The notes: generated by a model from the letters alone, not told the origin. Counted from the stretch's first letter, positions 11,141 through 32,035 are shown. The stretch: DNA of 64,000 nt from Desulfobacterales bacterium (GCA_963674755.2 CAXXVS010000003.1:2464001-2528000), one strand, 5' to 3'. Made by a program: numbers and translations.

Positions 11141-11202
11141 GGGGTCAATTCTGCCCATGACCCAATTAAATTTCAAGATGAGTCATGAGCAGATTTGACC
11201 CC
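11141..11202 (+). repeat. Palindromic element P1 (62 bp)
   Basis: GGGGTCAATTCTGCCCATGACCCA-ATTAAATTTCAAGA-TGAGTCATGAGCAGATTTGACCCC followed by AAGAA. Confidence 0.95.
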
Positions 11203-11285
11203 AAGAATTTAGCGGGTCATCATAACTCTCTGGCAAGCATGTAACTCAAAGTATTTATAGTATATTTTATTCCTCCCTAATATGT

Positions 11286-11318
11286 AAAAAGGGCTTCGGA
11301 ATAATTGCCGAAGCCCTT
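11286..11318 (-). terminator. Intrinsic terminator-like hairpin
   Basis: Minus strand AAGGGCTTCGG-CAATTATT-CCGAAGCCCTTTTT. Confidence 0.6.
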
Positions 11319-11627
11319 ATATAGTCGTTTGACAAAATTTCCCGAAGCCCCAGGGGTTTCGGAATCTTGCTATCTGGAATGGTAATGTAATGGTGCTGTC
11401 TCAAGACACTGGGGGGGGACCGCCTCGAATGATTTCTGTGTTAAGGATGGATAAAACCGGCAAATCTGTCAAAACGGTTTGGAATTTTGGACGATAGTGG
11501 CCGTCGGAGATGGTTTTATGATGGGTTGTACTTTACAGGTGAAAATTTTTAGAGTTAAATACTTAATAGTATTGCGGTGTTAAAAGTAGAATATCCACAT
11601 AATAATTAATATACTCCCCAAATAAAG

Positions 11628-12686
11628 ATGAAATTCAAATTTACCAAGGATTGGAAGCATTTTGAGAGAGTCGTTGCTGCGATTCATTCTGCTGAAATGG
11701 CTGGTGCAAATGTATTGTTAAATGAAAAAATAAAGGGGCGAGAGTTCGATGTTTCAATTCGTTTTAAAAATGGCCCTCACAGTTACTTAACACTAATCGA
11801 ATGCAAAAAGTATAGCAACCCAATACCGGTAGAGAAAGTTGAAGCCTTCATTACTAAAAGTTCAGATGCAGGGGCAAACAAATCAATTATGTTTTCGAGC
11901 AGCGGCTTTCAATCTGGAGCAATTACTGCTGCAACTCGACACGGCATTGATCTTTATACAGTATATGGAAAAATTAAAATACCTGATGAAATAAAAGCAG
12001 GTGGGGAAACTGAGGCACTTAATGTTCGTGATATCATTTTCACCATAGGCGGTTCCGATTATCATTTTCCTTTGGAAGATGGTAAAATGGAATATCACGC
12101 TAAAAAATCATTTCTAACACATGGCGCAGAAAAAGTTACGGTAAATGAATTTCTTGAAGCTCGAAGTCACGAGTTATTTAAACTAAGCTCCGACACCGAA
12201 AAAGAAAAAGTTTATAATCAACCACCAGGAGTAAGATTAACAGCTCCAAATATGATTGAAAATGGTGAGGTTCAGAAAATAACGATATGCTACAAGAAGA
12301 TGAAATTAGTAAACTTAAAACCTGGAACACCTGTAATGGACCACCATTTATTTGAAAAAATGGTTACTTATTACTGTATGAAAAATGAAGTTACAGGTGA
12401 AGAATCAACAATTATGGCATTAAGTGTTCACCTTGGGTTCGACACAAAAATCCAAAAGGGTAAATTCTACAGCAATCCAAATCTTGGAAATAGTTATTAC
12501 ATTGAAAGCATTAAAGATGGCATTGCTAAAATCTACCTATTGGAGAGCTATAGTATGGGAAATTTGGTACAAGCAGTTTATATGCAAAGCATTAAATATC
12601 AGTATCAATTTGTTTTGATTTCAGATCTTCGTGAGGTTTCTCGGTTATCGAAACTATATTCGAAAATGAAAGAGAAGGAAAGGTGA
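11628..12686 (+). CDS. Restriction endonuclease-like protein (Mrr_cat-type N-terminal domain)
   Basis: FERVVAAI...REFDV...LIECKKY...SSSGFQSGA motif pattern. Confidence 0.8.
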   Translation: MKFKFTKDWKHFERVVAAIHSAEMAGANVLLNEKIKGREFDVSIRFKNGPHSYLTLIECKKYSNPIPVEKVEAFITKSSDAGANKSIMFSSSGFQSGAITAATRHGIDLYTVYGKIKIPDEIKAGGETEALNVRDIIFTIGGSDYHFPLEDGKMEYHAKKSFLTHGAEKVTVNEFLEARSHELFKLSSDTEKEKVYNQPPGVRLTAPNMIENGEVQKITICYKKMKLVNLKPGTPVMDHHLFEKMVTYYCMKNEVTGEESTIMALSVHLGFDTKIQKGKFYSNPNLGNSYYIESIKDGIAKIYLLESYSMGNLVQAVYMQSIKYQYQFVLISDLREVSRLSKLYSKMKEKER

Positions 12687-12737
12687 TCAAGGCGCTGCTG
12701 CTAATTCTAACTTCCCACTGGTTCTCGGGGGGTAACC

Positions 12738-12826
12738 GAGTCAGACCAATTCAACTAATAGATATCACATATGATACGCTCTTAAATCGCCCTAAAATGC
12801 CCCTATAACCGCATTTTTGACATCAG
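12738..12826 (+). mobile_element. Orphan left-end/leader fragment of the RAYT-like element
   Basis: GAGTCAGACCAATTCAACTA..GATAT..TGATACGCTCT.AAATC..ATAAC.GCATTTTTGAC aligns with 23613-23700; cut off by palindrome P2. Confidence 0.7.
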
Positions 12827-12834
12827 GAAATATT

Positions 12835-12896
12835 GGGGTCAAGTCTGCCCATGACCCAATTAAATTTCAAGATGAGTCATGAGCAGACATGACCCC
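12835..12896 (+). repeat. Palindromic element P2 (62 bp)
   Basis: Same family and orientation as P1. Confidence 0.95.
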
Positions 12897-12984
12897 AAGA
12901 AGGACATTTCCTGATAGACCTTTCGGTGAATAAGAGGCATAAAATAGAGGAGTTATTGGAAAAGATCGATGAATTTGAATTGAT

Positions 12985-13047
12985 GGTTATAGAACATTTT
13001 GTGTTCTATATTCCGCAATTGTAATGTTCTATAATACTATGTTAGCT
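12985..13047 (+). other. attI-like site, copy 2
   Basis: GGTTATAGAACATTTTGTGTTCTATA...ATGTTCTATAATACTATGTTAGCT; GTTAGCTT is complementary to AAGCTAAC closing the FRG cassette. Confidence 0.72.
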
Positions 13048-13063
13048 TCTGGACTTGATTCGT

Positions 13064-13789
13064 ATGAAATCTTCTAAAATATCATCATTTTCAGGTTTTG
13101 AACGAATTCTCGAAAGAGAGAGTCATGCTTATATGTGGAGAGGTGTTTCAAAAAAAGAATATAAACTTATTCCTAAAGTTGCGAGAGATTGGCATTTAGG
13201 GCCTGAATTATTAAAATTGGCTGAAAAACAGCTTCTTGATCATTTTAGAATCCGTGCCACTCCTTTTTGCCAATTTATTCCGCAAACAGATTGGGAGTGG
13301 CTTGCATTAGCACAACATCATGGTCTCCCCACTAGACTTATAGATTGGACATGCAATCCACTTGTTGCTCTTTATTTTGCGTGCCGTGAAAAATCACAAA
13401 ACGATGGCGTAGTCTATTTTGCAAAATGTATAAATGAAATAGACACTAAGGTCATTTTATCACCTTTTGATATTAAGGATGAAAGAAAGTGGAGCGCTCA
13501 ACATTTTAACAATAGGCTTTCTTCGCAAAATGCTCTTTTTACTCTTTCCGAAAATCCCACAGTTCCTTTTAACAACGGAATATTTCATCGCGCCATAATC
13601 AAAGGTTCTTCAAAAAGTGATATTCTTTCTAAGTTGAAGCAGTTTGGCATTCATCAAGGTACAATATTTCCTGGTTTTGAAGGTGTTGCTAAGTATGTCG
13701 AAGAAGAATTTTTCTTTTTTAAGGGAATGGATAAAGACAAGGCATTAAAGGCACTTGAAGAAAGCCTTGAAAATGACAAAAAAAGCTAA
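13064..13789 (+). CDS. FRG domain-containing protein (cassette)
   Basis: WRG...LAQHHGLPTRLIDWTCNPLVALYFAC...RLSSQNALF. Confidence 0.9.
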   Translation: MKSSKISSFSGFERILERESHAYMWRGVSKKEYKLIPKVARDWHLGPELLKLAEKQLLDHFRIRATPFCQFIPQTDWEWLALAQHHGLPTRLIDWTCNPLVALYFACREKSQNDGVVYFAKCINEIDTKVILSPFDIKDERKWSAQHFNNRLSSQNALFTLSENPTVPFNNGIFHRAIIKGSSKSDILSKLKQFGIHQGTIFPGFEGVAKYVEEEFFFFKGMDKDKALKALEESLENDKKS

Positions 13790-13855
13790 CCCCTTTCTTC
13801 ACCTGACCGGTGTTCCGCTGCGCTTCACACCGGCCAGGTGAGAAATACGTTAGAT
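13784..13855 (+). other. attC site 6
   Basis: AGCTAAC...TCACCTGACCGGTGT..ACACCGGCCAGGTGA...GTTAGAT. Confidence 0.9.
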
Positions 13856-13888
13856 TCCAGGAATTAAAATTATTGAGGGGGCGATATC

Positions 13889-13955
13889 GGGACGCCCTTT
13901 ATATTTTTACATTTGAAACGCCATTTCTGTATAAATATAAAAATATTAAGAGCCC
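13889..13955. repeat. AT-rich hairpin beginning GGGACGCCC (related palindrome type)
   Basis: Arms CTTTATATTTTTACATTT / AAATATAAAAATATTAAG pair at 16 of 18 positions. Confidence 0.55.
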
Positions 13956-14008
13956 TTAAGCCTCATTGACTGCCTGTGCGGAACTGCCGAACCACCGACG
14001 TAGAGGAC

Positions 14009-14071
14009 GCACCCAAGTCATCCAAAGGAAGCGTACAACGATGATAGAGGATGCTCGTGCTGCACTGCGAG
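14009..14071 (+). pseudogene. 5' fragment of a DNA alkylation repair (AlkD-like) gene truncated by P3
   Basis: 63 bp homologous to 32085-32147; encodes MIEDARAALR. Confidence 0.65.
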
Positions 14072-14082
14072 GAATGGGTAAT

Positions 14083-14144
14083 GGGGTCAAGTCTGCCCAT
14101 GACCCAATTAAATTTCAAGATGAGTCATGCGCAGACTTGACCCC
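14083..14144 (+). repeat. Palindromic element P3 (62 bp)
   Basis: Same family and orientation as P1. Confidence 0.95.
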
Positions 14145-14218
14145 TATAAATTAGCACTGTTGAGAGAGAAAGAAAGCGAGCTCTGATGCGTTTTTTACAC
14201 ATTGATATTATAAAAGGA

Positions 14219-14310
14219 AGCTAACAAAAGCATAAACGCGAGCGTTTTTCGCCGTTTCGTTCGCTTCGCGTTCTACACTTTGAAAAACAACGGTTATGCT
14301 GGTGTTAGTT
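14219..14310 (+). other. attC site 7 (its cassette is truncated upstream by P3)
   Basis: AGCTAAC-AAAAGCATAA...TTATGCTGGT-GTTAGTT. Confidence 0.8.
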
Positions 14311-14334
14311 TTCCAAATACATTGTGAGGAGATA

Positions 14335-15240
14335 ATGAAAATCATTATCAGACTTGCTATTTTGGAATTTTTACTATTTTCACTACTGTGTGCTTCTTCA
14401 ACAGTCGCTTGTACAATAATTTCAGCCAGTAATAGTAGAACGGTTCTCTTTGCAGGGAACCAAGACTGGTTTCCTGCTGAATCATATTTGGTTGTGGATA
14501 AAACAGGTAAATTTGGTGTAGTTTTTTTTGCCCACCCTGCTAAGTCATACGAACTAGTAATGATGAAGGGAATAAACGAAAAAGGATTAAGCTATGATTT
14601 TAACTGGATTCCGGCAGAAAAACTTATACCTCACCCTGAAAGATCTCCCCAATTTGAATGGGCATTAATCACACACATGAGGGATTCGTGTACAGTAGAC
14701 GAGATACTAAAAAAGCTATTAACATATAATTTTGGGAATTCAATAGACTATCAAATCCATTTTATCGATAAAGATGGAAATGCCGTAGTGTTATATCCTG
14801 GCATAAATGGTGAGTTGGCATATACACGGAAGCCTAAAGGAAATGGTTATTTAATTACAACTAATTTCAATCACGCAAGACGGGAGAAAACATCATGGTC
14901 GCCTTTGGATTATGTCTACTCATTTTTATTTGATGGAAAATATGAAACAGCTGATAATATGCTTTCAAACTTTATAGATCAGGATGATTTAACAGTTGAA
15001 AATATGGCATCAGTTTTAGATGCGACTCATCGCGACTCTTTGTTTGACACACGCTTCTCCATAAAAACGCTTTTTTCAACTGTAGTTGATCTTAAAAACA
15101 TGCAAATTTCACTATATTACAAACGCCAATTCGACAAACCTATTGTATTGGATATAAAACAAGAATTGGATAAAATTGATACCTATAAAAAAGTTTCTTT
15201 AGAAGAGGTGGTGTCAAAAGTAAGTAAAGAAAAAGAATAA
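14335..15240 (+). CDS. Secreted Ntn-hydrolase (choloylglycine hydrolase/C45-like; cassette)
   Basis: Signal peptide then CTIISAS..LFAGNQD, GINEKGL and TTNF; GAGGAG RBS. Confidence 0.8.
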   Translation: MKIIIRLAILEFLLFSLLCASSTVACTIISASNSRTVLFAGNQDWFPAESYLVVDKTGKFGVVFFAHPAKSYELVMMKGINEKGLSYDFNWIPAEKLIPHPERSPQFEWALITHMRDSCTVDEILKKLLTYNFGNSIDYQIHFIDKDGNAVVLYPGINGELAYTRKPKGNGYLITTNFNHARREKTSWSPLDYVYSFLFDGKYETADNMLSNFIDQDDLTVENMASVLDATHRDSLFDTRFSIKTLFSTVVDLKNMQISLYYKRQFDKPIVLDIKQELDKIDTYKKVSLEEVVSKVSKEKE

Positions 15241-15273
15241 TAATTTTTAATTCAAAAGTATAGCAACATCAAA

Positions 15274-15353
15274 AACAAACCCGGCGTTCAACATCGCTCC
15301 TACGTCGCTTGGACGTGGCAAACAGGGCCTCGCTAGTTAACTCTATGTTAGAA
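15274..15353 (+). other. attC site 8 (degenerate)
   Basis: AACAAAC (vs cassette start GTTAGTT)...GTTAGAA. Confidence 0.7.
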
Positions 15354-15413
15354 AGAGGGTAAGACAGCCTGTAAACAAAGGAACTGAAAATTAATTCTTA
15401 TAAAAACAATTCG

Positions 15414-17030
15414 TTGGTTGGCTTTGTCTTGCTGTGTTTAATCTTTGGATCGCATCAAGATTCTCTGATAGGCAGCCTGCGAGCAGAAAATCGTAATACA
15501 GCAGTTCCAAGTGTCGAGATTAAACCGGACAGTGTTCTGGGAGATGAAGAGGTGGTCATCAAGCTTTCCGGATTTAACCCCGATCAAGAAGTTACAGTAA
15601 AAGCGCAAGCCGGCAACTGGCGGTCCAAAGCTATATTTAAGGCCGATTCTTTGGGAAACGTGGATCTTTCAAAACAAGCCCCTATATCAGGGACTTATAG
15701 AGGGATTGATGGAATGGGGCTCATCTGGTCTTTAAAAAGAACAGATGAAAAAACTGTAGACCGGAAGCAAAAACCTTATAATGGTGACGTTTATAAGCTG
15801 CCGATTATCAGACTGGAAAAAAATTCCCGAGTTGCCAAAGCCGGGTTAAAGGAAAATGATGTGCTGGTTGCTATGGATGGGAAGCCAATCCAAAACCAGA
15901 AAGAATTGTTTAACAGGATCCAAAATCATCTTGAATCGGCTTTGAAATCCCAACAAGACGTAACCTTCAATATTAAGATCGAGCGAAATGGTCACCCCCT
16001 AACTTTGCCAATTATTGTTCATAAGGAAGACCTTTCAAAACGATGGTACAAGGGTGTCATACTAGGTTCAAGGTTAATAAGAATCTTCTTAATTGAGGCG
16101 GAAGTTGAAGGTAAGGTCGTGGCTTCCACGATCTTTAAACAATACGATGTCGCCGCGGATGTAACAGAATTAGCGGTACGAGAGAATGGCCTGGTCGGAT
16201 CATTGTTCAAACCTGGTTCACCAGGCCCTCATCCAGGTATCATCGTACTTGGAGGCGCTAGTGGCGGAATAATTTCGGCCTCATATGATGCAAAGATGTT
16301 GGCCTCTCACGGCTATGCGGCGCTGGCACTGGCCTATTTTGCCTATGAGGATTTGCCACCCCGACTGATAAATATTCCGTTGGAATATTTTGGAGATGCG
16401 ATTCAATGGATGGAAAACCACCCTGCTGTCACATCGAATAAAATTGGTGTATTAGGCAGATCCAAGGGAGGAGAATTAGCTCTCTTGCTTGGGGCCACCT
16501 TTCCGAAACTAAAAGCGGTCGTTGCTTATGTCCCCAGCCACGTTGTTTGGGGGGGTGGGAGGAATAAGAGTTCATGGACAATAAACGGTAAACCATTAGA
16601 CTTTGTTCCTCTCAGGCATATAGTGAAGTTGTATGAACATCCGCCCATAAGATTTACCCCCATGTTTTTACTTAGTCTTCAAAATACTTCTGCTGTGGAG
16701 AAAGCAGTAATTCCTGTGGAAAGAATTAATGGACCGGTGCTTTTAATTTCAGGAGAAGATGATCAAGCGTGGCCATCCACACTCATGTCAGAAATGGTGA
16801 TGAAAAGACTGTCCAGATTTAAACATCCTTTTCCATATCAACATTTGAGTTACGAAGGAGCGGGGCATATCATCATAAATCCATATTATCCGACAACGAT
16901 ACTACATGGCATCCATCCTATTTTTAAGTTTGATATTGCTTATGGCGGGAATCCTCAAGACAATGCGTTTGCTTGTAAAGATTCATGGCCCAAAGTATTA
17001 CAATTTTTAAAAAAGAGCTTTACTCCTTAG
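15414..17030 (+). CDS. Acyl-CoA thioesterase/BAAT-family alpha/beta hydrolase with an inserted PDZ domain (cassette)
   Basis: Nucleophile GRSKGGE, SGEDD and AGH; PDZ motif SRVAKAGLKENDVLVAMDGKPI. Start codon uncertain. Confidence 0.85.
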   Translation: MVGFVLLCLIFGSHQDSLIGSLRAENRNTAVPSVEIKPDSVLGDEEVVIKLSGFNPDQEVTVKAQAGNWRSKAIFKADSLGNVDLSKQAPISGTYRGIDGMGLIWSLKRTDEKTVDRKQKPYNGDVYKLPIIRLEKNSRVAKAGLKENDVLVAMDGKPIQNQKELFNRIQNHLESALKSQQDVTFNIKIERNGHPLTLPIIVHKEDLSKRWYKGVILGSRLIRIFLIEAEVEGKVVASTIFKQYDVAADVTELAVRENGLVGSLFKPGSPGPHPGIIVLGGASGGIISASYDAKMLASHGYAALALAYFAYEDLPPRLINIPLEYFGDAIQWMENHPAVTSNKIGVLGRSKGGELALLLGATFPKLKAVVAYVPSHVVWGGGRNKSSWTINGKPLDFVPLRHIVKLYEHPPIRFTPMFLLSLQNTSAVEKAVIPVERINGPVLLISGEDDQAWPSTLMSEMVMKRLSRFKHPFPYQHLSYEGAGHIIINPYYPTTILHGIHPIFKFDIAYGGNPQDNAFACKDSWPKVLQFLKKSFTP

Positions 17031-17135: not shown

Positions 17136-17257
17136 TTCTAACAAACACATCGAGGCGGACGGCAATAGCGTGCGGTGGTTTCTAAATTAATGGTTTTTGG
17201 TAAGCTCGTTGTTTCTTCAACTTCTGTCGAAGCCGCCGCTCATGTTCGGCGTTATGT
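17136..17257 (+). other. attC site 9 (long, 122 bp)
   Basis: TTCTAAC (complement of GTTAGAA)...GTTATGT. Confidence 0.82.
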
Positions 17258-17930: not shown

Positions 17931-18138
17931 AGGAATCTGGTAGGCAAATTTGGATAATCAAATCCTTTACAAATACAGGCCATATAATTGTCGGTCTTTA
18001 TCTATACTCAAAAATAGGGAGTTCTATTTTTCTGATCCAAAACACTTCAATGATCCTGTTGACTGCCAAGTCGGAATTTATAGTGCATTAAAATCGGCCG
18101 TTGAACTCGCACAAAAGGAAGATTCGACCGTAAAAGAT

Positions 18139-20028
18139 GATGGCCGCGTAAAAAATCAGGCGGCCAATTTGTAGCTTTCTGGATATCTTCCCGACGAATT
18201 TGTCCAAGCGAAGGCAAATTCCACCAGAGCGGCCTGTAAACGTTCTTTGACACGATAAACAGCAGTCGTAATACGGTGATCAAGGCCCGGATTACCCTCT
18301 GCGGCCTTCATTCTGGCCCTGCGAACCCGGGCCGCCCGTAGCAGATTGAGCCCGGTGGCCTTCATTTTGGCACAGAAGCGCACCGCCGGCATGCCCCGAA
18401 CCCGTAGCTTTTTGACCCCGGTGCGCCGATCATATTCGCTCATGGTGGCCTCCACACCGGCCCGCCAGCGATAGGTGTCAATGAAAGCCTCGCTTTTCTC
18501 GGCCTTGCGACGCACCGATAGGCGATATTGCTTTCCGCTGTAGCGCAGATAGTTCTTCTTTTTCCCAGGCTTGACCGGGCAATGACCCGCATGCGGACAT
18601 CCCTGGCAAAGCGTGGAATCGAAGGCCGCGCTGTAACAATCGGTTTTCTTCTTGTGCTTCACCTGCTCGGGAACGTGACCCGCCGGACAGGTCTCGACAT
18701 AGCCCTTGTCATTAAAGCTAAACGCCGTGAGCGGCTTGGACTCATTGCCCTTCTGGGTCGGGGCGACAAGGTCGACATCGGCCACTTGGGCCGTCTGGTG
18801 GTTACTGTCACTGCCGTACAAAGTGTCGGCGACCAACTGATCGGGCCCCACACCCCGGATCTTGGTATCGGCGATGGCCGGCACCACGGCCTCCGCATCG
18901 CTCTCGCAGGCGGGTTGAACTTCGACATGGGTAATCAGGTTAAGCGCCTGCTCTTTTTCATTGGCCTCTTCACTGCGGCTGAAGCTCTCCATGATCTGGA
19001 CCTGATAGCCCTGGCCCTTGTGGCCGCTGTAGGTGGCCTCCGGGTCCGAAGGGTTTTGCAATGAGTCGGAGGGGATCTCGGCCGGCTTCTTTATCGTTAC
19101 TTGGGGGGCACCGGCGGCATCGGTCTCGACATGGCATTGATCGGCGAGCACCCGCTGCATGAGCTTGTAGCTGTGCATGAAAGCCACCGCCGTTTGGTCC
19201 TTGAAGCCCTCGATCAGATCGAACAGATCATTGCTGACCCGTTTTAACGTCTTTTCCGATTCCGTGGGTTTAACCAGAGAAAAGGCGGATAGGGCCTTCT
19301 CACCCCAGTAACGATCAATCACATCAGAAGCGATCGTATCGAACAGCTCTCGGTGGTGGCGTTTGAGATTGACCAGGAACTTGGCGATCGTGCGGCTGAA
19401 AATGGCAATACGGCCCAGCCGGCGCATGTTGGAGCGGATGTGTACCGAGTCGATGCGCTGGTTGGAAGGATCTACACCGAACACTTTGGCCAATTTGTCG
19501 GTGAGCTTTTCGAACATGACCCCGTCAATGCCATTTTCGGCCATCAGCTGGCGGGTCGACCACAGGGTCTTTTCGCTGACGTATTTGGCCTCGTCGCTTT
19601 CTTCAGTGATGTCCAGAGCATAATGCCACTGGAGGTTGTAGGCCAGCTGCTCGACGGCCTCGACATCGTTTAAATCCATGGTTTGCTGGAAAAGCATCAC
19701 TCCCAGCAGGGTATGCAGTTCCTTGGTGGGCCGCCCTATGGCTTCAGTGAAGAAGGGTTTTAACAGATCGACGGGAAGTTCTCCGAGCAGATGCTGGCGG
19801 AACAACCCGGGCCAGCCCTCTTCGAGCATCCGGCGCCGTTTGGGGCTCAAATAGGCCCACGGGTCGAAGAGATGTTGCTGTTTGTGGTCTTTGATGCGAA
19901 GCATGCGATCTCCAGGATAACCATCTGTAATTGTTTGGTTTCCTGTAGCATGACGAGAAGAAAATGGCAAGCTGAAATTGGGCGTTTTGTTAAATAATTC
20001 AGGCGGATAGACTTTTTACGATGCCATC
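18139..20028 (-). mobile_element. Complete insertion sequence (IS1182-like), 1890 bp
   Basis: TIRs GATGGCCGCGTAAAAA / TTTTTACGATGCCATC; 6 bp target duplication AAAGAT at 18133-18138 and 20029-20034. Family assignment is from transposase size and motifs. Confidence 0.88.
18156..19904 (-). CDS. DDE transposase
   Basis: RIDSVHI, QNPSDPEATYSGHKGQGY, ADTLYGS, a Cys cluster and YRWRAGVEAT. Confidence 0.92.
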   Translation of the reverse strand: MLRIKDHKQQHLFDPWAYLSPKRRRMLEEGWPGLFRQHLLGELPVDLLKPFFTEAIGRPTKELHTLLGVMLFQQTMDLNDVEAVEQLAYNLQWHYALDITEESDEAKYVSEKTLWSTRQLMAENGIDGVMFEKLTDKLAKVFGVDPSNQRIDSVHIRSNMRRLGRIAIFSRTIAKFLVNLKRHHRELFDTIASDVIDRYWGEKALSAFSLVKPTESEKTLKRVSNDLFDLIEGFKDQTAVAFMHSYKLMQRVLADQCHVETDAAGAPQVTIKKPAEIPSDSLQNPSDPEATYSGHKGQGYQVQIMESFSRSEEANEKEQALNLITHVEVQPACESDAEAVVPAIADTKIRGVGPDQLVADTLYGSDSNHQTAQVADVDLVAPTQKGNESKPLTAFSFNDKGYVETCPAGHVPEQVKHKKKTDCYSAAFDSTLCQGCPHAGHCPVKPGKKKNYLRYSGKQYRLSVRRKAEKSEAFIDTYRWRAGVEATMSEYDRRTGVKKLRVRGMPAVRFCAKMKATGLNLLRAARVRRARMKAAEGNPGLDHRITTAVYRVKERLQAALVEFAFAWTNSSGRYPESYKLAA

Positions 20029-20599
20029 AAAGATAAGCTTCAGAAGTTAGGAAAGTTAGAAGATATATATGCCAAGATTGAAAATGACGTTAAACGATCA
20101 GCTGTATTCTCCCTCTCAAAAGAGGAAAATAATGTATTAATGTGGTCGCACTACACAGAGAGTCATACTGGTTTTTCATTAGGTTTTACTTTGTCCAAAT
20201 CATTTACCGAATATAATGAATCAAAAGCAATTATTGGTAAAAACGACGTCCACTATTCTGAAGATAATCCGTTTGTTGATTATTTTATTGAATTTGCAAA
20301 ATGTACTCAGCTACCTGAATGGAATGAATTCTGGGTATCGCTATTGTCAATGGGGTTAGTTGTCAAATCTAAAGCTTGGGAATATGAAAATGAGGTGCGA
20401 ATTATAAGAGGGAAGCCAGGCAAGGTTCAGTTTTCACCTTCTGAACTTAAAGTTGTAATTTTCGGGTTAAATTTGACACCCAAAAAAAGAATGAAGATAC
20501 GAAATATACTATCTGATCATGAATGGAGTCATGTACAAATAAAAGAAGTTATCAGAGAAGATGATGGTTTTAGGTTAAAGGTGGTAAATTGTTAAGGAA

Positions 20600-20659
20600 A
20601 TATAACCAGCGACTGCTCCCGACGCTCGTTCCTCGCGCCGGAGAGCAGCGACGTTCGAC
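20600..20659 (+). other. attC site 11
   Basis: ATATAAC...CTGCTCCCG..CCGGAGAGCAG...GTTCGAC. Confidence 0.82.
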
Positions 20660-20812: not shown

Positions 20813-21571
20813 ATGAACCGCATACTCAAAAGGTCATCAATCCGCCGATCGACGGATCAGGATCTCGCTCAAGTTCACACATGGCTCATTGAAGAGAATG
20901 AGCAGGGTGTCCATGGCAACTTTCTCTGCAACTGGAGGGTCATAGATAGGGCCCATAAAAATAGAAACCTATTAGTCTATATCGACGGCGCGGTTGGTCA
21001 ACCTGTCGGATTTCAGCTTGGCGGACTCTTAAGCCCCGGCATTCTCCAGGTGCGCAATTCATTCCGAGGGAAAGGCATTGGCCGGAAGCTGGTGGAGCGA
21101 TGCTTCTCGCTCGCAAACAAACGCAACGAACCCTGCCTTTTGATTCAGTGCATCCCTTCCTCATCGATTCTGTTTTGGAAGAAAATGGGATTCACCCTTT
21201 TGGATAAGAACAGGTACGGTGAACATTATGCCTATCGAGTGGTGAACAAGAGCCATAGGCTTCCAGAACAAGGCACCGATATTGACGACGCCATCGCATT
21301 TTATCCAGAGTCAAGGAGATGGGAGGTCAACGAAAAACCATATTCATATTTCTCTCCATCCGCCAGAATCGATTCAGATGGTGTTATACACCTCGGGCAA
21401 CGCGTAATTTTTCATGAAAAGACCTCTCCGAAATACGAGGATGTATTGGTGGGAATGGAAATATCAGGCGAACCTGCTTATCTTGATAAGGCGAAATATC
21501 AGCAGACGCGTGATATGGGCGTAGAGAGGTGCCAAAACGGGTACTATATTGACCTACTTAGGGTTTCCTGA
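20813..21571 (+). CDS. GNAT-family acetyltransferase (C-terminus altered by IS insertion)
   Basis: FRGKGIGRKL and FWKKMGF motifs. The original end LLRGLMRGHIV* continues after 23263. Confidence 0.8.
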   Translation: MNRILKRSSIRRSTDQDLAQVHTWLIEENEQGVHGNFLCNWRVIDRAHKNRNLLVYIDGAVGQPVGFQLGGLLSPGILQVRNSFRGKGIGRKLVERCFSLANKRNEPCLLIQCIPSSSILFWKKMGFTLLDKNRYGEHYAYRVVNKSHRLPEQGTDIDDAIAFYPESRRWEVNEKPYSYFSPSARIDSDGVIHLGQRVIFHEKTSPKYEDVLVGMEISGEPAYLDKAKYQQTRDMGVERCQNGYYIDLLRVS

Positions 21572-23257
21572 ATAATGTCTTTTGCGCCGTATATCCTATC
21601 GCTACTGAGGTTTTACGGCCTGCAGAAGCCAACGAGACCAATGTCACCACCGAGACAAATACGGCAATATCGCCTTGCAGGAGGCTTAATCCAGCGGCTG
21701 GGAGCCCAGATAGTAGATGTGAGGCACGAAAAGAGCGCAAAAAAATGGCTCTTGAGCCACTTCTCCAGATTCATCACCAAAAAGGTTATCAGGATCGCCG
21801 CCTCGGAGGTGATATCGAGCTTGCACATGATCCGAGATAGGCTGAAGCGCCGCTTGCCTTGCCCGAACTTGCCTTCGATCGGTATCCGATCCAACTCGTC
21901 TTGGCGGGCTTGCTTGGCGATAGCCTGTCGCTTTGTGACATCAGCCGGCGGCCGGCCCAATGGCGGACCGGAAAGCCGAATGCCGTGCTTCTTGCAAAAC
22001 TTGCGGTTGTCCCGGGTGCGGTAGATCGTATCGGCGTGGACCGATTCCGGATAATGGCCAAAACGTGTGCGGTACGCCTCGATCTGATCGATCAGATCGC
22101 CGGACTCGTTGAAGGCATCCCAACTGATGCGATCCACAAAGGAGAAGCCGTCAATCAGGCTGGCAGATATCTTGGCTCCAAACTCAGTGGCCGCTCCGGC
22201 CTTTCCGCGCTTGATAGGTCGGACGTGGGGCTGTGAGACGCTCACGATGCGATCATCGATTCGAGTCTCACGGTGATCATAAAGCCATTGCTGCTGGCGA
22301 TAGACTTCATGGATGACCAGCAGGTTCTTGTAATGGCGCGGCTTGAGAACCGTAAGTGGCGTTTGACGGGACAATTTCTCAATCGTCTTCAAGTTACGTT
22401 TAAGATAGCCTAACTGCTTTCGCAGCGCCTTTCTCATCTTGTTCTTTGATAAACGTTTGCTCTTGGCGGCGGCAAGAAACGCTTTGCGGGCCACTTTACG
22501 GTAAGTGCGCGGCTTGTTCTGTTTTCCCTTGAGTGGCTTGTGCAGAATATCAATGATTTCTTCGCTTTTTTCACGAGCCGTGTTCAGCATTTTCAGATCA
22601 GTTGGAAAGGTAATGTCCGCCGGTGTGCAGGTGGCATCCACAAGCAGCTTGCCACGATTATCTGATGCGCCTCCTGCCAGATCGCTATCGTCATTAGAGT
22701 CCTTGGATGGCGCTGCTTTCTTTTCGGATTCAAGAGCCTTGCTGGCAATCCTTTCGTTGATCTTGGCGAAGCGCTTCTTTCCGAAGCGTTTTCTGAAGTA
22801 AACGAACAGCGACGGATCGAACGGTTTCTCGTCCCGGTAAGCCTTGTAGCCCAGAAAGTACTGCAGGTACGGATTCTCCCGGATCTGCTCCACGGTTTCC
22901 TCGTCGCTGGTGCCCAAGCGCTCTTTGATGATCAGCGCACCTAAGGCCACCCGCACTGATTTGGCCGGTGGCCCCAAACGTGAATTTCTAAAGCTTTTGC
23001 GGTAGGCTTTTTCAAACTCCGCCCAAGGGATGAACTTAGCCATCTTCACCCAGCGATTGTCGCTGCGCAGCCGACCGTCGAAAGGCAGGGCGAAATCTTC
23101 GAATTCCAATTGCCGTTGATTGTGTCGATACATGGGAAAGTCCGGAAAAAGTGCAAGGGTTTTGGGTAAAATGAAGGGGATTGCTTTTCACTTTTCCGAA
23201 TATTTATGACATATATTGACAATATATTCAATGACTTATTTGTTATTCAGGAAGCCC
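21561..23257 (-). mobile_element. Complete IS5-family insertion sequence, 1697 bp
   Basis: TIRs GGGTTTCCTGAATAA / TTATTCAGGAAGCCC; 6 bp target duplication TACTTA. Confidence 0.9.
21613..23133 (-). CDS. IS5-family DDE transposase
   Basis: LLVDATCTPADI, HADTIY and RIPIEGKFGQGKRRF. Confidence 0.93.
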   Translation of the reverse strand: MYRHNQRQLEFEDFALPFDGRLRSDNRWVKMAKFIPWAEFEKAYRKSFRNSRLGPPAKSVRVALGALIIKERLGTSDEETVEQIRENPYLQYFLGYKAYRDEKPFDPSLFVYFRKRFGKKRFAKINERIASKALESEKKAAPSKDSNDDSDLAGGASDNRGKLLVDATCTPADITFPTDLKMLNTAREKSEEIIDILHKPLKGKQNKPRTYRKVARKAFLAAAKSKRLSKNKMRKALRKQLGYLKRNLKTIEKLSRQTPLTVLKPRHYKNLLVIHEVYRQQQWLYDHRETRIDDRIVSVSQPHVRPIKRGKAGAATEFGAKISASLIDGFSFVDRISWDAFNESGDLIDQIEAYRTRFGHYPESVHADTIYRTRDNRKFCKKHGIRLSGPPLGRPPADVTKRQAIAKQARQDELDRIPIEGKFGQGKRRFSLSRIMCKLDITSEAAILITFLVMNLEKWLKSHFFALFSCLTSTIWAPSRWIKPPARRYCRICLGGDIGLVGFCRP

Positions 23258-23396
23258 TACTTAGGGGCCTAATGCGGGGACATATCGTTTAGTTCCGATT
23301 GCTACGCTTGACCAATTCCGCCAACCAATGCAGGCAATGGACACACAGTAAGCGTCGCGCTGCGGCAGGGTGCCGCAGTGGATTTGGGCGCGTAAT

Positions 23397-26251: not shown

Positions 26252-26266
26252 TGGCGCAATAATAAT

Positions 26267-26331
26267 GGGGGCAAGTCTGCGATAGCTTCCCATATGAAAA
26301 CCTATAAATTGAAAAGAGAAGACGACACCCC
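26267..26331. repeat. Degenerate related palindrome
   Basis: TAAT-GGGGGCAAGTCTGC ... AGACGACACCCC. Confidence 0.5.
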
Positions 26332-26499: not shown

Positions 26500-26622
26500 C
26501 TCTTGTCCAAAAACGGGATCAAATGGAAGTAATCTAACAAAATCTTGAAAAAAAGCCCCCTTGTGAGGCATGGTTTAGCTGCGAGGAAAAACCGATAGCC
26601 AACAACAGGGAGGCAAAATAAT

Positions 26623-26684
26623 GGGGTCAAGTCTGCCCATGACCCAATTAAATTTCAAGATGAGTCATGAGCAGACTTGACCCC
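26623..26684 (+). repeat. Palindromic element P6 (62 bp)
   Basis: Consensus copy. Confidence 0.95.
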
Positions 26685-26694
26685 AAGAATCTCT

Positions 26695-26999
26695 GGCGTG
26701 GCGTTTTACAAGCAGGCCGATTTATGGTAGCCAAACTGTATACATCCCTTGCAGTTCAGCCGGCCTGTTATCCCGCATATTCGGGTGCGCTTCCTGCGCA
26801 CTTCTTCGAAATATACACGATGCAGCTTATAGAACATCGCTGCTGTTCTATAACACCGTTTCAAAATAGCCTATTTGGTGGATAAGAGAAATAAAACAGA
26901 GGGTTTATTGGAAAAGGATCATAAAGATAAATTGATGGTTATAGAACATTTTACGTTCTATAAGCCGCAATCGGAATGTTCTATAATACTATGTTATAT
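26695..26999 (+). other. attI-like site, copy 3, with its full leader
   Basis: 26695-26837 matches 6823-6965 and about 26865-26999 matches 12915-13047. Ends CTATAAT-ACTAT-GTTATAT. Confidence 0.75.
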
Positions 27000-27018
27000 G
27001 AAAAAATAAGGGAGTAAT

Positions 27019-27075
27019 GGGGTCAAGTCTGCCCATGACCCAATTACAAGGTGAGTCATGAGCAGACTTGACCCC
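27019..27075 (+). repeat. Palindromic element P7 (57 bp, short-loop variant)
   Basis: Loop ATTACAAGG instead of ATTAAATTTCAAGA. Confidence 0.95.
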
Positions 27076-27432
27076 AAGAATTGACCCTTCCCGGGATCGC
27101 GGCACTACCTCTGTGATTATTGCGGCTACACCTCCCTTTCTTTTTTTAAAACGGTCTCTATCCGATTAGACCGCTTTCCAATTCGCAAAATCAAAACCGT
27201 TGTTAATGGGGTAAAAGCCGGGACGGAATAAAAGGGGCGATAGGAAAGGGCGGTGCGGTCATAGTAAGTGAAAATCACGGCCGCCGCTACGACCCCGACA
27301 ACCTCCGGCGGAATTCGGCGTCACGCCTTATAAGTTGGGGGAATACCTGGCTTATGCTGCAGGAGATCAACCTGGCGGTTTTTGCGCGTCTCACCCGAAC
27401 CGTCTGTCCATTAAAAAAGAACATATGAATAA

Positions 27433-27524
27433 TGAACTTCCCCGCCGCAAGCGGTCGGGGTATCTCTACGGGATATATTCCCAATTCGCCGCAAGCGGCG
27501 GGGAATTGACCCTTAGAGATTAAA
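27433..27524. repeat. REP-like hairpin doublet
   Basis: CCCCGCCGCAAGCGGTCGGGG and CGCCGCAAGCGGCGGGGAATT hairpins. Confidence 0.6.
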
Positions 27525-27561
27525 GAACACCGATATTTTCCGCGCAGACATCTGAAACAGG

Positions 27562-29340
27562 ATGTCGATCGCCAATTTTCCTGCAGAGCAGCCGATGTTC
27601 TCCTACGTCTTCATGAAAATCCTGGAAAACCGTGCGAACCGGTATGACCGCGGAATCGATGTCGCAAGTGGGGGGCACGCCAGCAAGATCAGAAAGTTCA
27701 TTGTGGCGCATTACGTCCGGAATGGCATTGCGATGCTGGACATCGGCTGCGGGACCGGCACCCTGGCGGTGGAAGCCGCGTTGGCGGGTGCGACGGTCGC
27801 CGGCATCGACATCTCCCGAGGAATGCTGGCGATCGCACGGCAAAAGGTCGCGCGCCGATCCCTGGAGGGAAGGGTCGCTCTCTACGAAGCGGGGGTCGTC
27901 GAGATAGACACGCTCTTCAAGACCGGTGACTTCGACCTGGTCACGTCCACGCTCGTCATGAGCGAGCTTTACCCGGCTGAACGGCGCTGGGCGCTCAAGC
28001 AAGTCCACGCGCTTCTGAAACCCGGCGGGATCCTCGTCATCGCGGCCGAGGTTTTGCCCAAGAACACCCTCAAACGTTTCCTGTATCGGCTTGTCCGCGC
28101 ACCGTTGTCGATTTTAACCTACCTGATCGCCCAAACCGGAACCAAACCGGTGGCCGGTCTCGATGCGGCGCTGACAGGGGCGGATTTCGATATCCTCGAA
28201 AGACGCTTCTCCTTCCTGGACAGCTTCACGGTGGTCGTCGCAAGAAAAGGCCGTAACCGCACGGCCGCGGCGCAGGATTTCAAAGCGCTCACGCCGGCGG
28301 GGGACATTTCCAGATTGAAGACCATTTGGGATTTCGGCGGCAGGTGGTTTCCCTGCCCGGTGGAACCAGGGCTGCGAATCATCGGCAAGCCCAACAGGGA
28401 TTCCCCGGTGCTGGTGACTGGGAATTTTCATCTGACCGTAAGGCGCGTGGAAAAATCGCTCGCCGGATTGTCGTGCTACCTGCTGGTGGCACCCACAGGC
28501 GGCATCAACGTATGGTGCGGTTCCGTCGGCGGCGAAATGACGGCGCATTCCGTCATCTCCGCGGTCACGACGAGCGGCATTGCCGGCATGGTCGCTCACC
28601 GGCGGATCATCCTGCCCCAGTTGTGTGCCCCCGGCGTCGACGTGACGTCCGTGCACGCCCAAACCGGTTGGCACGTCGTTTTTGGCCCTGTGTATTCCGA
28701 AGACATCCCGGCTTTCCTGGAAACGGGAAACCGGCACGCGCCAAATGCCGCCGCCCGGTTTTCCCTGCCCTTCCGTCTGGAAATGCTATTCTCCATGAAT
28801 TTCCTCGTCTGGCTGGCAGCAGCGCTCGCGTTCTTGGTGTTCAACAGTACCACCGCCCTCTACTTTTCCGCCGTATTCTGGGGGTCCGCTTTGCTGCTCT
28901 ACGCAGCCTACCCGCTGATCCCGGGGAGAAGCGGTTGGATCAAGTCACTGCTGATGGCCGTGGTTGTGTCCGCCGTCATCTTTCTCGGCCGGGCACACGT
29001 CTCGCATTGTGCCGGATGGATTGTTGTGACGGTTTTCGTCAACCTCTGGCTGGGTTTCGACCTGCGCGGCATTGTCAGTGGAGACACTTCGGAAGCGGTG
29101 CTGCTGCTCAACAAACTGCACATCGGCTCTTTCGGGAAATTGCACAAAGCCAGCTCAAAAGAATCGCTGTCGGTACGTTTGGATTACGACCGCTGCACGG
29201 TTTGCGGGCTGTGCGTCCGCCTGTGTCCAGCGAACGCCTTGAGCGAAAAGGATCGCCGCATCACACTGGAACAACCGAAGTGCATGAAATGCGGGGCTTG
29301 CGTGAAACAGTGTCCCGTCGACGCTTTGCGATTCGAATGA
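27562..29340 (+). CDS. Fusion of a class I SAM methyltransferase, an HgcA-like corrinoid/TM region and a 2x[4Fe-4S] ferredoxin
   Basis: LDIGCGTG; SPVLVTGNFHLT...GGINVWCGSVGG; RRIILPQL; about 4 TM helices; CTVCGLCVRLCP and CMKCGACVKQCP. Confidence 0.85.
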   Translation: MSIANFPAEQPMFSYVFMKILENRANRYDRGIDVASGGHASKIRKFIVAHYVRNGIAMLDIGCGTGTLAVEAALAGATVAGIDISRGMLAIARQKVARRSLEGRVALYEAGVVEIDTLFKTGDFDLVTSTLVMSELYPAERRWALKQVHALLKPGGILVIAAEVLPKNTLKRFLYRLVRAPLSILTYLIAQTGTKPVAGLDAALTGADFDILERRFSFLDSFTVVVARKGRNRTAAAQDFKALTPAGDISRLKTIWDFGGRWFPCPVEPGLRIIGKPNRDSPVLVTGNFHLTVRRVEKSLAGLSCYLLVAPTGGINVWCGSVGGEMTAHSVISAVTTSGIAGMVAHRRIILPQLCAPGVDVTSVHAQTGWHVVFGPVYSEDIPAFLETGNRHAPNAAARFSLPFRLEMLFSMNFLVWLAAALAFLVFNSTTALYFSAVFWGSALLLYAAYPLIPGRSGWIKSLLMAVVVSAVIFLGRAHVSHCAGWIVVTVFVNLWLGFDLRGIVSGDTSEAVLLLNKLHIGSFGKLHKASSKESLSVRLDYDRCTVCGLCVRLCPANALSEKDRRITLEQPKCMKCGACVKQCPVDALRFE

Positions 29341-29361
29341 AGGGCAATAAACCGGACAGGA

Positions 29362-30267
29362 ATGAAAATGAACCTAAAACAAGAAACGCGTCGACCGCAA
29401 AACCTTCACATCATACCACGCAAGATGGATTTTGACTTTGCCGCGTCATTAAGGAACAGTTGTTATTGGAATGATAATAATGCGGTATCAGCGCATTTTA
29501 TCAATGCCCTTCAGGACACCTTCCCCGAAGGAGAACGCTTTTTTATGGATGCCGCCCGCCAAGCTGCCAAAATTCTGCACCAAAAAGGATTGTTGGATCA
29601 AGAGCTTGAACAGGATCTGCAGGCCTTTTCCATGCAGGAGGCCTCACATGGCTGGCTCCATCATAAATGGTCGCAGGCATTGATTGAAAGCGGATATGCC
29701 AGGTTAGCCGACTATGGCGATCAGCTTCACAGGGCGCACCTCTGGCTAAACCGGTATTTGCCTGTCAAAATGCGTCTTTCGATTACAAGTGCGGCCGAAC
29801 ATTACACCGCTTCAATCGCCTATATGCTGGTGCATATCAAACCCGAGTTGATTACGCAGTCCACCTCCCCCTTTAAAGATATGTTGCTCTATCACGCCAT
29901 GGAAGAACTTGAGCATAAAAGTGTTTGTTTTGATTTGTATCAGAAGTTATCGGGAAATTATCTCTTACGGCTGTTTGGTCTATTGTTCATCACCGTTGAT
30001 CTTTCAACACTGGTTTTTATGCGCTATCACTATTTAATGCAAAAAGACGGACTTTGGGATGTGAGACACCGGAAGTTGGCATGGCACTTTCTTTTCGGCC
30101 CTAACGGGTTGATTAAATCGATGTGGCCGAGAATCAAAAGTTATATGAAACGTTCTTTTCATCCCTGGCAAACCGATGATCGCCATGAAATGGAATCCGC
30201 TTTTGGTGATTTTATCAGAACATTAGAAATCGTGCCTTTCGAATATTCGTCAGGGCCTCCTGAATAA
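29362..30267 (+). CDS. Predicted metal-dependent hydrolase
   Basis: FPEGERFF, QEASH, EHYTA and HAMEELEHKSVCFDLY motifs. Confidence 0.88.
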   Translation: MKMNLKQETRRPQNLHIIPRKMDFDFAASLRNSCYWNDNNAVSAHFINALQDTFPEGERFFMDAARQAAKILHQKGLLDQELEQDLQAFSMQEASHGWLHHKWSQALIESGYARLADYGDQLHRAHLWLNRYLPVKMRLSITSAAEHYTASIAYMLVHIKPELITQSTSPFKDMLLYHAMEELEHKSVCFDLYQKLSGNYLLRLFGLLFITVDLSTLVFMRYHYLMQKDGLWDVRHRKLAWHFLFGPNGLIKSMWPRIKSYMKRSFHPWQTDDRHEMESAFGDFIRTLEIVPFEYSSGPPE

Positions 30268-30332
30268 TCAATTTCGCTTCGCAGGTCGGCTATTTTCAGC
30301 CCTTTCATGGATGTCAGGGGTAAACGCGTAAT

Positions 30333-30420
30333 GGGGCCAAGTCTGCCCATGACCCAATTACAAGGTGAGTCATGAGCGGACTTGACCCCAAGAATCCTGA
30401 GCAGACTTGACCCCAAGAAT
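30333..30420 (+). repeat. Palindromic element P8 (30333-30389, short-loop variant) plus duplicated right arm
   Basis: Loop ATTACAAGG as in P7; a second TGAGCAGACTTGACCCCAAGAAT at 30398-30420. Confidence 0.95.
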
Positions 30421-30450
30421 CCTCAAGAATCCACAATATCAGGAACTTAG

Positions 30451-30464
30451 CTTGGTCCGACCCC
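30451..30464 (+). mobile_element. Putative right end of the RAYT-like element
   Basis: CTTGGTCCGACCC is the exact reverse complement of the left end at 23613-23625. Confidence 0.6.
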
Positions 30465-30655
30465 AGCTGCCCCCTTTTTGATGAGAAAGATCTTAAGTTT
30501 GCCGTTCTCCAGCCGATATTGCTATTCAAATATATCATTCTGGTTTGAATTCCGACAGTGCTTCCTTGGGCACTTCCGTGAATGATCCGTCTTAGTTGAA
30601 ATACATTGCAACATGGAGAATGGCAAACCAGGCAGTTATTGAAGAAAGGAGAAGT

Positions 30656-31792
30656 ATGTTTAACAAACTGTCATTTCAAAAGAAAATCGGATTCGGATAC
30701 ATCCTAACCGCCCTCGGGATCGTTGCCGCCGCCTTGCTGCAGAACCCGGTTGCCTGGGATATTTCCATGTTGTTGGCAGTGGTTTTCGGGGTCATCGCCT
30801 ATCGTACGGCTTCCGCCCATCAGAGGCGGATGTACTACTTGGAAGGCACTTTAGATGCGGTTCAGTTGCCCATTACCGTCACCGACATGGATATGAAATG
30901 GGTCTTTGTCAACAAAGTAACGGAAAGCCTGCTGGCAATGAACAATCTGGACAAGCAAAGCTGTCTGGGTAAACACTGCTCCAACTGGAAAGCGGATATC
31001 TGCGGGACTGAGAATTGCGGGATCGCCAGCCTTCGAAATGGCATCCCCCAAACCAACTACAACCAGGAATACCCGGACAAGCCCAGCACCTACATGCAAG
31101 TGGACACCAGCTATATTCAGGACAAAAATGGGAAGAACATCGGTCATGTAGAAATCGTCACCAACATCGACGCCCAATACCGGCTTCAAAACACAGTGGA
31201 GAATCTCGCGGCATCAATGGAAGAGACATCCGCATCTTTGGAGGAGATTTCGGCGGTGACGAAGAGCACCGAAGCAACCACAGCCGATGTCGACCGTCTC
31301 ATGCAGAAGGCCGGTCAAACCGTTACCGTCGTCAGCCAAGCCATGGACGACTTGACCCAATCCATGAACAATATCAAAAATGCCAGCGAGGAAACCTCAG
31401 AAATCATCAAAACCATTGATGAGATCGCATTCCAGACCAATTTGCTGGCATTAAATGCCGCCGTGGAAGCCGCCAGGGCCGGAGAGGCGGGAGCCGGTTT
31501 TGCCGTGGTTGCCGACGAAGTAAGGAATCTGGCCATGCGGGCCGCCGAAGCGGCCAGGAATACGGCGGAATTGATCGAAAGCACGGTGAAACAGATAAAT
31601 GACGGTCATAACCAGGTTATTGTGAACAATGACAATTTCAGCAAACTGTCAGAAGTCATTGACCAGACCACGGAGCAGTTCGGCACCATCTCAACTTCAG
31701 CCCGGGAGCAATCACTTGGCATTGAACAAATCAATGTAGCTGTCGCACATGTGGAGCAGGTGCTTATGGAGAACAGCGGTGGCGGTTCATAA
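30656..31792 (+). CDS. Methyl-accepting chemotaxis protein with a PAS domain
   Basis: [47 protein letters not shown]-terminal TM segments and PAS. Confidence 0.92.
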
Positions 31793-31974
31793 AAGCGGCT
31801 ACCAGAGGCGGCGTAGAAGTAATGGCCTATGGATGGAGAATGCCAAAGGCAAGCACAACAAATATCGATGTCTTTGCAGATCTCCATTTTGGTAGCCATA
31901 CGACATGTAGTGCTTATGGTATTCTGACAAATTTTTCAGGTAGCTCCAACGTACCGCAACCAAGGAACTTATAA

Positions 31975-32035
31975 GGGGCAGGTCTCAACATCTGACATGT
32001 TTTTATGCCCCGTGTTAGATGTTGAGACCTGCCCC
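31975..32035. repeat. Related 61 bp palindrome
   Basis: GGGGCAGGTCTCAACATCTGACA / TGTTAGATGTTGAGACCTGCCCC. Confidence 0.85.

Follow-up and report, generated by a model that had tools for sequence, protein, structure and literature searches.

Y1 transposases flanked by inverted repeats have been named TIRYT, and the units that they form TIRtrons; by the same account the TIRtron repeats start with GGGGWSAS, and some of them form moderately abundant dimeric families (Di Nocera et al. 2013, PMC3733652). Proteins bearing a Bac_DnaA_C domain have been placed in TnpA-REP subclass 2.1.2, with subclass 2.1 as a whole equated with TIRYT, and the portion of that survey cited here reports that REP-like sequences were not found near subclass 2.1 genes (Quentin et al. 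2018, PMC6006769). Non-autonomous repeat elements paired with a cognate transposase are also described in the REPIN-RAYT systems of Pseudomonas and Escherichia (Bertels and Rainey 2011, PMC3116915; Ton-Hoang et al. 2012, PMC3333891). The subject of this report is a group of palindromes in a 64,000-nucleotide stretch of the genome of a Desulfobacterales bacterium (C3:2464001-2528000 of G000, a 6.71-Mb genome in three contigs, C1 to C3). The whole of this stretch is called the window, and plain positions are counted from its first letter. The palindromes are probably REPIN-like doublets that insert and then recombine, as partners of a RAYT/TIRYT-type Y1 HUH transposase, and not a second cassette system.

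A pattern search of both arms, allowing up to three mismatches, gave eight paired-arm palindromes in the window, all in + orientation and all within an island at 6752-31963; no arm pair was matched in 100 shuffled windows. Six are 62 bp long (P1, 11141-11202; P2, 12835-12896; P3, 14083-14144; P4, 20717-20778; P5, 23397-23458; P6, 26623-26684), and two are short-loop variants of 57 bp with 97% identity to each other (P7, 27019-27075; P8, 30333-30389). Each doublet is built of two inverted 24-nt arms around a loop of 9-14 nt. Arm positions 15 and 22 are mismatched in all eight copies, with C.A in the top strand against T.G in the bottom strand, so that an uninterrupted hairpin is formed on the bottom strand only. 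The bottom strand folded into an unbroken 25-bp stem at -25.6 kcal/mol (z -10.1 versus shuffles), and the top strand, with two internal mismatches, reached -22.6 kcal/mol (z -8.4). The left flank was TAAT, TATT or TGAT in eight of eight copies, and AAGAA followed on the right in seven, with TATAA at P3. No consistent target-site duplication was seen at any of the 16 intact copies of the genome whose flanks were inspected, and matches of 4-7 nt at P1 and P2 were not general. A first-pass annotation of the window had listed the eight starts, the common orientation, the two constant mismatches, the flanks and the lack of target duplication, and each of these was recovered.

By inspection, the TAAT flank is able to pair with the ATTA that opens the loop, and AAGA is found on either side of the right arm, which also contains a TTGACC hexamer. 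Copies remain similar for 7-24 nt leftward and about 6-11 nt rightward of the palindrome, so the unit extends past the palindrome itself; we describe it as the two inverted arms with about 8-25 nt of left flank and about 6 nt of right flank. Tandem reiterations that join the last 4-8 nt of the arm to 5-8 nt of flank often trail the right end. These were found at P5, P7, P8, C1:486788 and C3:1436299, at the transposase unit described below, at a doublet of another species and at a second palindrome family. At P5 (23459-23497) the units comprise the last 7 nt of the repeat and 6 nt of flank, and to the right of P8 (30391-30414) there is a partial second right arm with repeated flank units. The reiterations could stem from repeated nicking and rejoining, or from slippage at the hairpin foot; we know of no description of them, no literature search on this point having been made.

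The only longer element in the genome with ends of the doublet type is a 1033-bp unit at C1:916347-917379, in which perfect inverted arms enclose a single open reading frame (ORF) of 325 aa (C1:916398-917372). It sits just past the 3' end of a tRNA-like gene (called by eye). The protein matched the Pfam families Y1_Tnp (1e-15) and Bac_DnaA_C (2e-10), and its translation carries an HUH motif (HYH) and a tyrosine motif (RYIHKNP). The best NCBIfam model was REP_Tyr_transpos (REP-associated tyrosine transposase), with 70.8 bits against a curated cut-off of 80, versus 22 bits for transpos_IS200. A sequence search of solved structures matched the DnaA domain IV part only, and no solved RAYT. More than 7,700 database proteins have the same architecture of Y1_Tnp plus Bac_DnaA_C, several of them named RayT by one source, and many two-domain homologues lie on contigs of barely 1-1.7 kb. 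The transposase-flanking repeat starts with GGGGTCAA, which agrees with GGGGWSAS at seven of eight positions, and by this start the element belongs to the TIRtron kind. As read from its sequence, the 325-aa protein is the likely mobilising enzyme of the doublets, which would themselves be non-autonomous, with the enzyme gene enclosed by the same repeat in inverted orientation. The genome has seven more RAYT-like Y1 genes, with Y1_Tnp matches of 1e-11 to 3e-6 in open frames of 111-354 aa (C2:1885907, C2:1644746, C1:626392, C3:764779, C3:763739, C3:1282460 and C1:1285484).

The association of arm and gene extends beyond this genome. When one genome per species was scanned for exact matches, the arm turned up in 32 loci of other genomes, mostly labelled Desulfobacterales. 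At 11 of these loci (10 distinct places) a transposase homologue lies within 2.5 kb, and at six places a full-length homologue of 51-96% identity stands between inverted arms. Two other genomes also had doublets built like those of G000. Within the genus an orthologue with two flanking arms was found only in G005 (96% identity), giving two of 13 genomes when G000 is counted; the remaining 11 have only paralogues at 33-54% identity, or none. Because the transposase gene is flanked by the arm both in G000 and in other Desulfobacterales, the palindromes are taken to be REPIN-like dimers of a known kind, and the link to REP elements and RAYT enzymes drawn in the first-pass annotation is upheld by an intact gene flanked by the same arm. 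A metagenome scan with the exact loop-spanning core of the doublet gave no match, and a shorter arm pattern gave three contigs, dissimilar to G000, in which the arrangement is related but not the same.

Compared with the sections of the published accounts cited here, the system shares with TIRtrons a Y1 HUH transposase with a C-terminal helix-turn-helix (HTH; Bac_DnaA_C), GGGGWSAS-like inverted repeats, and a flanking repeat that is also a dimer family of moderate size (PMC3733652). Unlike the TIRtrons in those sections, the doublets are strongly clustered, have one orientation and strand-asymmetric mismatches, and lie at integron crossovers and island junctions (PMC3733652, PMC6006769). With REPIN-RAYT they have in common two inverted units forming a long hairpin, non-autonomy, and a cognate tyrosine HUH gene flanked by the same unit (PMC3116915, PMC3333891). 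They differ from classical REP sequences, as outlined in these sources, in having no GTAG or CGTC tag; the TAAT/TGAT/TATT flank stands in its place and fits the TIR type. They also number in the tens instead of hundreds, are not dispersed over intergenic regions, and have an orthologous enzyme that is patchy across the genus and not uniformly inherited. Their catalytic domain family is that of the IS200/IS605 "peel and paste" elements, which also leave no target duplication, whose hairpin ends are recognised as single strands, and for which the cited sections lead one to expect a replication orientation bias (PMC5027513, PMC3597680, PMC6006769). The short left flank and the few nucleotides right of the hairpin are reminiscent of the offset cleavage sites of that family, from which the doublets differ in being free of genes and in that their bias comes from few independent clusters.

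REP-type transposases of the DnaA-HTH branch abound in metagenomes, and to our knowledge none of them has a tested activity. In G000 a transposase gene occurs together with the repeat that flanks it and with a young dimer family of strain-variable positions, which offers a concrete pair of enzyme and substrate.

A search of the whole genome returned 37 arm matches, which resolved into 17 doublets, a solo arm and the two arms that enclose the 1033-bp unit. Eight doublets are in the window, four elsewhere on C3, three on C1 and two on C2, and eight of the 17 fall within 19 kb. The first-pass annotation had held that no copy occurs outside the island; this is true within the window and fails for the genome, where there are nine more doublets, the solo arm and the transposase-flanking pair. 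The single orientation extended to the full set, as all 17 doublets lie on the + strand of their own contig. By cumulative GC skew the + strand is the G-rich (leading) one throughout C1, past 340 kb of C3 and over the first 1.0 Mb of C2. Relative to replication, 15 of 17 doublets thus have one orientation and the two on C2 the other. Over the three contigs together the skew itself rises for ~4.8 Mb and falls for ~1.9 Mb, which means either very unequal replichores or that one contig is a separate replicon or mis-oriented.

Copies outside the window lie in accessory contexts with insertion sequence (IS) elements, a group II intron, toxin-antitoxin genes and cassette-like ORFs, and the palindrome clusters are close to integrase fragments, not in the array of the intact integron. 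One C2 doublet is interrupted between left arm and loop by an IS200-like element. This element, of ~640 bp, is one of five in the genome (L010:7407-8106, C2:1977406-1978105; Y1_Tnp 2e-40), and its exact insertion at that point suggests that the doublet is exposed as single-stranded DNA in vivo. At the same locus two palindrome copies enclose the reverse transcriptase/maturase gene of a group II intron (L010:4878-6428, C2:1974877-1976427), and there is also a Gp49/HTH toxin-antitoxin-like pair.

Within the island the palindromes stand where unrelated DNA is joined, at the places that the first-pass annotation had assigned them and at distances that could now be measured. P1 starts 8 nt past the crossover of an integron attC site at 11059-11138. 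P4 is 63 nt past the crossover of the attC at 20600-20659 and directly upstream of a GNAT gene, and P7 is 25 nt past the crossover-like ...CTATG/TT end of an attI-like leader (copy 3, 26695-27004). To the left of P3 is a 5' gene stub and to its right an unrelated cassette tail; the stub is the 5' part of a DNA-alkylation-repair-like gene, and 14009-14071 resembles 32085-32147. P2, P6 and a copy at C3:1419427 lie directly upstream of leaders: P2 ends 17 nt upstream of leader copy 2 (12914-13049), leader homology starts 10 nt past P6, and the block 12834-13049, palindrome and leader together, resembles C3:1419426-1419645 at 79%. A + strand remnant at 26264-26281, resembling the TAAT flank and the first 14 nt of the left arm, marks the point at which three relatives cease to match a flavin reductase/TetR cassette. 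Of the copies outside the window, the one at L011:4627 has a radical-SAM 5' stub upstream of it, and the one at L013:6300 has an N-terminally truncated DUF3089 gene downstream of it.

Contigs of four runs from related strains, of which X1 is a metagenome, were compared with the window. The contigs break at the repeat, so that a joint only shows that a copy follows. In run X20, position 13928 is joined to the sequence 8 nt left of P3, with the 145-nt stub missing, and a copy lies 23 nt past the crossover of the attC at 17136-17257, where G000 has none. In X1 a copy comes directly after 17029. These three strain-variable joints end 7-11 nt left of a palindrome, and a fourth, 27244->29332 in X1, has no palindrome there. 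The joints 13049->27015, 23466->12988, 26837->12988, 26837->26969 and 11107->13794 were disregarded as cross-matching of paralogous leaders or attC sites, and parts of the window uncovered in some runs were left out of account. Since copies lie near crossovers, beside truncated genes and at strain-variable joints, the repeat ends are real breakpoints. The view of the palindromes as joints is thus sustained by the truncated genes, the leader boundary and the three strain joints, and it does not hold for the cassette differences among relatives, which end at attC-type crossovers, nor do all strain breakpoints map to palindromes. The BAAT-type thioesterase cassette is 97% identical in G001, with homology ending at the attC at 17136-17257, and the flavin reductase/TetR cassette shared with G001, G005 and G010 likewise ends at an attC-type crossover.

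In the mechanism that we favour, the doublets would derive, as dimers, from the repeat that flanks the gene of a TIRYT/RAYT-type enzyme, and this enzyme would have spread them by acting on hairpins of single-stranded DNA in the manner of IS200/IS605 and E. coli TnpA-REP. Insertion into single-stranded DNA would fix one orientation and would explain the single orientation of the doublets. AT-rich spacers just downstream of integron crossovers, in accessory DNA, may be favoured or tolerated targets. Direct copies of 60-85 bp could then feed homologous recombination, or deletions made by the enzyme from the repeat end, and such events would yield joints of unrelated DNA, truncated genes and duplicated leader segments. 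Insertion followed by recombination is the simplest account, and it needs no new cassette system to explain why leaders, stubs and non-cassette genes form a mosaic in the island's distal half.

Several observations weigh against this account. The REP_Tyr_transpos score of the protein falls short of the curated cut-off, as given above. The doublet arms differ from the transposase-flanking repeats at 2-3 of 24 positions, and G005 carries the orthologous gene with no doublets, so that it is only by inference that the enzyme acts on the G000 copies. Seventeen copies in tight clusters do not resemble the populations of classical REPINs. The bias in orientation with respect to replication comes from just six clusters, five versus one, and is suggestive at best for that reason. 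No empty site was found for any copy, and no strain joint skips 57-90 nt at a palindrome; the flanks in relatives are too dissimilar for empty sites, G004 matching one side of C1:486788 and nothing near C3:882115. For this reason we infer insertion without having seen it. The account also explains poorly that two or three of the eight copies lie within 8-63 nt of a crossover, that a leader copy fits exactly between P6 and P7, and that P7 and P8 form a private subtype around two genes. These last three points keep alive, as a minority possibility, the alternative that we take up first.

That alternative is the one put forward in the first-pass annotation, that the palindromes splice in modules as a second cassette system: an HUH transposase would cut the ends of two co-oriented doublets and move the DNA between them as a unit, a form of capture independent of attC. 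It is an unlikely explanation on balance. Leader copy 3 nearly fills the P6-P7 interval as a captured unit would, and the 57-bp subtype is present only as the P7/P8 pair, bracketing a higher-GC, 3.3-kb segment of two genes. Yet no module was found at two places with palindromes at identical boundaries, and a search of 60 further genomes of the order with the P7-P8 and P8-end segments gave no DNA-level relative, only a chemoreceptor signalling domain being matched. The three strain joints and the truncated genes beside copies would also follow from capture, but direct repeats of 60-85 bp can give the same junctions through ordinary recombination, and a contig joint at the repeat is silent on how the copy arrived. 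The end-plus-flank reiterations, present at the transposase unit as well, could be footprints of repeated cleavage and rejoining. Against capture stand the shared cassettes of relatives, which end at attC-type crossovers, and the 27244->29332 joint, which is away from any palindrome. The claim of a second cassette system was accordingly not borne out.

A narrower proposal concerns where the enzyme works. P1 and P7 are within 25 nt downstream of two of the 11 crossovers in the 25-kb island, where ~0.09 of the eight copies would be expected by a rough, post-hoc count; the enrichment, which also counts in favour of the insertion account above, was noticed after the fact and on attC sites called by eye and a crude heuristic. 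Perhaps, and this we put forward tentatively as an outside chance, the HUH enzyme and its doublets act specifically at single-strand-prone DNA beside attC and attI, with end-cleavage and rejoining, not homologous recombination, splicing and deleting segments. If so, integrase-dependent arrays would be eroded to integrase-less mosaics and non-cassette genes brought in, and an attC-independent route of module exchange would be coupled to integrons. IS1111-attC insertion sequences and group IIC-attC introns target integron sites, and pairs of miniature inverted-repeat transposable elements (MITEs) mobilise integron segments. The doublets resemble these as small mobile elements at attC/attI or around integron segments, and are unlike IS1111-attC and IIC-attC elements in lying 8-63 nt downstream of the crossover, not inside attC, and in having a different enzyme family. 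Targeting of integron sites by the doublets is only suggested, the count being post hoc. Were the closeness to crossovers real, the doublets would be a third kind of element exploiting integron recombination sites, with a bearing on the origin of integrase-less cassette clusters and mosaic islands; otherwise they are an ordinary small repeat colonising accessory DNA.

The doublets may instead have come with horizontally acquired DNA and multiplied by its duplication and recombination, without an active transposase. We consider this improbable as well. The setting is compatible with it: the island covers 25.2 kb at 37-54% GC between flanks of 60-63% and is absent from G004, a genome of the same genus in which 6751 is followed directly by 31964 and which lacks another 0.8 kb as well (32046-32823), so that all window copies are within low-GC DNA that G004 does not have, and the other copies are likewise in accessory contexts. 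A palindrome and its leader block were duplicated together (79%), the doublet arms are a variant distinct from the repeats that flank the transposase gene, and G005 has the gene and no doublets. Passive multiplication, however, does not fit with copies that are 95-100% identical when the adjoining co-duplicated DNA is 79-92% identical, with the many unrelated sequences that adjoin them, or with closely related strains having copies where G000 has none.

There is very little to recommend the idea that the palindromes are hairpins selected by the host at cassette 5' ends, as terminators, insulators, RNA-stabilising stems or promoter donors. Each of the eight window copies has the orientation of the flanking + strand ORFs, several copies are directly upstream of ORFs, and the right arm has its TTGACC hexamer. 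But no T-run follows the stem, Rfam matched no family anywhere in the window, and the truncated genes beside copies and the link to the transposase-flanking repeat point to mobility. It is next to impossible that the palindromes are attC sites of an unusual class on which the integron integrase acts: in size, imperfect symmetry, single orientation and spacing they are like attC arrays, but they lack AAC...GTT end boxes, extrahelical bases and an unpaired central spacer, their bottom strand pairs throughout, and genuine attC sites with those features lie alongside. A MITE of a DDE insertion sequence was rejected, as no target duplication is seen and as these ends recur on just one longer element, whose gene is for a Y1 enzyme.

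A cassette array occupies the first 14 kb of the island, with eight co-oriented attC sites between 8138 and 20659, each after a short + strand ORF and each with paired AAC...GTT ends and a folded stem. They were called by eye and with the crude heuristic. The + strand sites named here are those at 11059-11138, 13784-13855 (of the FRG cassette), 17136-17257 (of the BAAT-type thioesterase cassette) and 20600-20659 (after the DUF2971 gene), the last convincing attC of the island; none was found past 20.7 kb. An attC covariance model could not be built, since neither a MAFFT alignment of 11 sites nor a refold of eight gave consensus pairs. The heuristic was also tried genome-wide as an association test and rejected: it missed known sites and placed a candidate within 3 kb of 26% of random positions, and was therefore useless for that purpose. 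Among its genes, an Mrr-type nuclease, FRG, DUF2971 and GNAT are typical of cassettes.

The integron integrase model TIGR02249 had no match in the window. The genome has one full integrase gene (C2:2339256-2340191) and four C-terminal fragments (C1:181041, C1:721999, C1:756585 and C3:1409422). The intact gene appears co-oriented with its array and upstream of it, reading towards the cassettes.

Four leader copies were found. Copy 1 (6823-7027, +) has a core ending in ...CTATGTT and is followed by attC cassettes; copy 2 (+) is followed by the FRG-domain cassette with the attC at 13784-13855; copy 3 (+) is a mosaic of copy-1-like and copy-2-like parts; and copy 4 is outside the window at C3:1419584-1419639. 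All four diverge immediately past ...CTATGTT, and attC cassettes come next in three. Their end resembles the ...ATAGTTRGGC site downstream of the integrase genes of the genome, and no integrase adjoins them. It is reasonable, from these sequence likenesses, to regard the leaders as putative attI-like sites. The leaders (6940-7020, 12960-13045 and 26800-27000) also hold one or two palindromic boxes, TATAGAACA-N5-7-TGTTCTATA, that overlap a TATAAT hexamer; such a box may be an operator, possibly of SOS type, with a promoter.

Two DDE transposase elements lie in the island, both on the - strand. The first (18138-20030) interrupts the DUF2971 cassette gene, parts of which remain at 17950-18174 and 20140-20595, and has three more copies in the genome at 98-100% identity and copies at 98-99% in the relative G001. 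The second (21559-23259) has a 98% copy at C3:1413921-1415621, beside another palindrome cluster.

The second palindrome family is represented at 31975-32040 (+). It is a different family with similar termini and its own right-flank reiterations, and it is kept at the G004 empty site. DNA specific to G000 lies on both sides of it, with the 25-kb island to the left and the extra 0.8 kb, which carries a truncated DNA-alkylation-repair-like gene, to the right. Nine arm matches of this family were found in the genome, with no RAYT-like gene within 2.5 kb of any.

Just outside the island is an HTH/HipA-type toxin-antitoxin pair (33568-35155), conserved in G004. A repeat of ~150-350 bp, for which no Rfam family was matched in the window, occurs at 4230-4880 and 37573-37928, and also at L015:5955-6294; it is present in dozens of copies per genome, at 70-95% identity, in all searched genomes of the genus.

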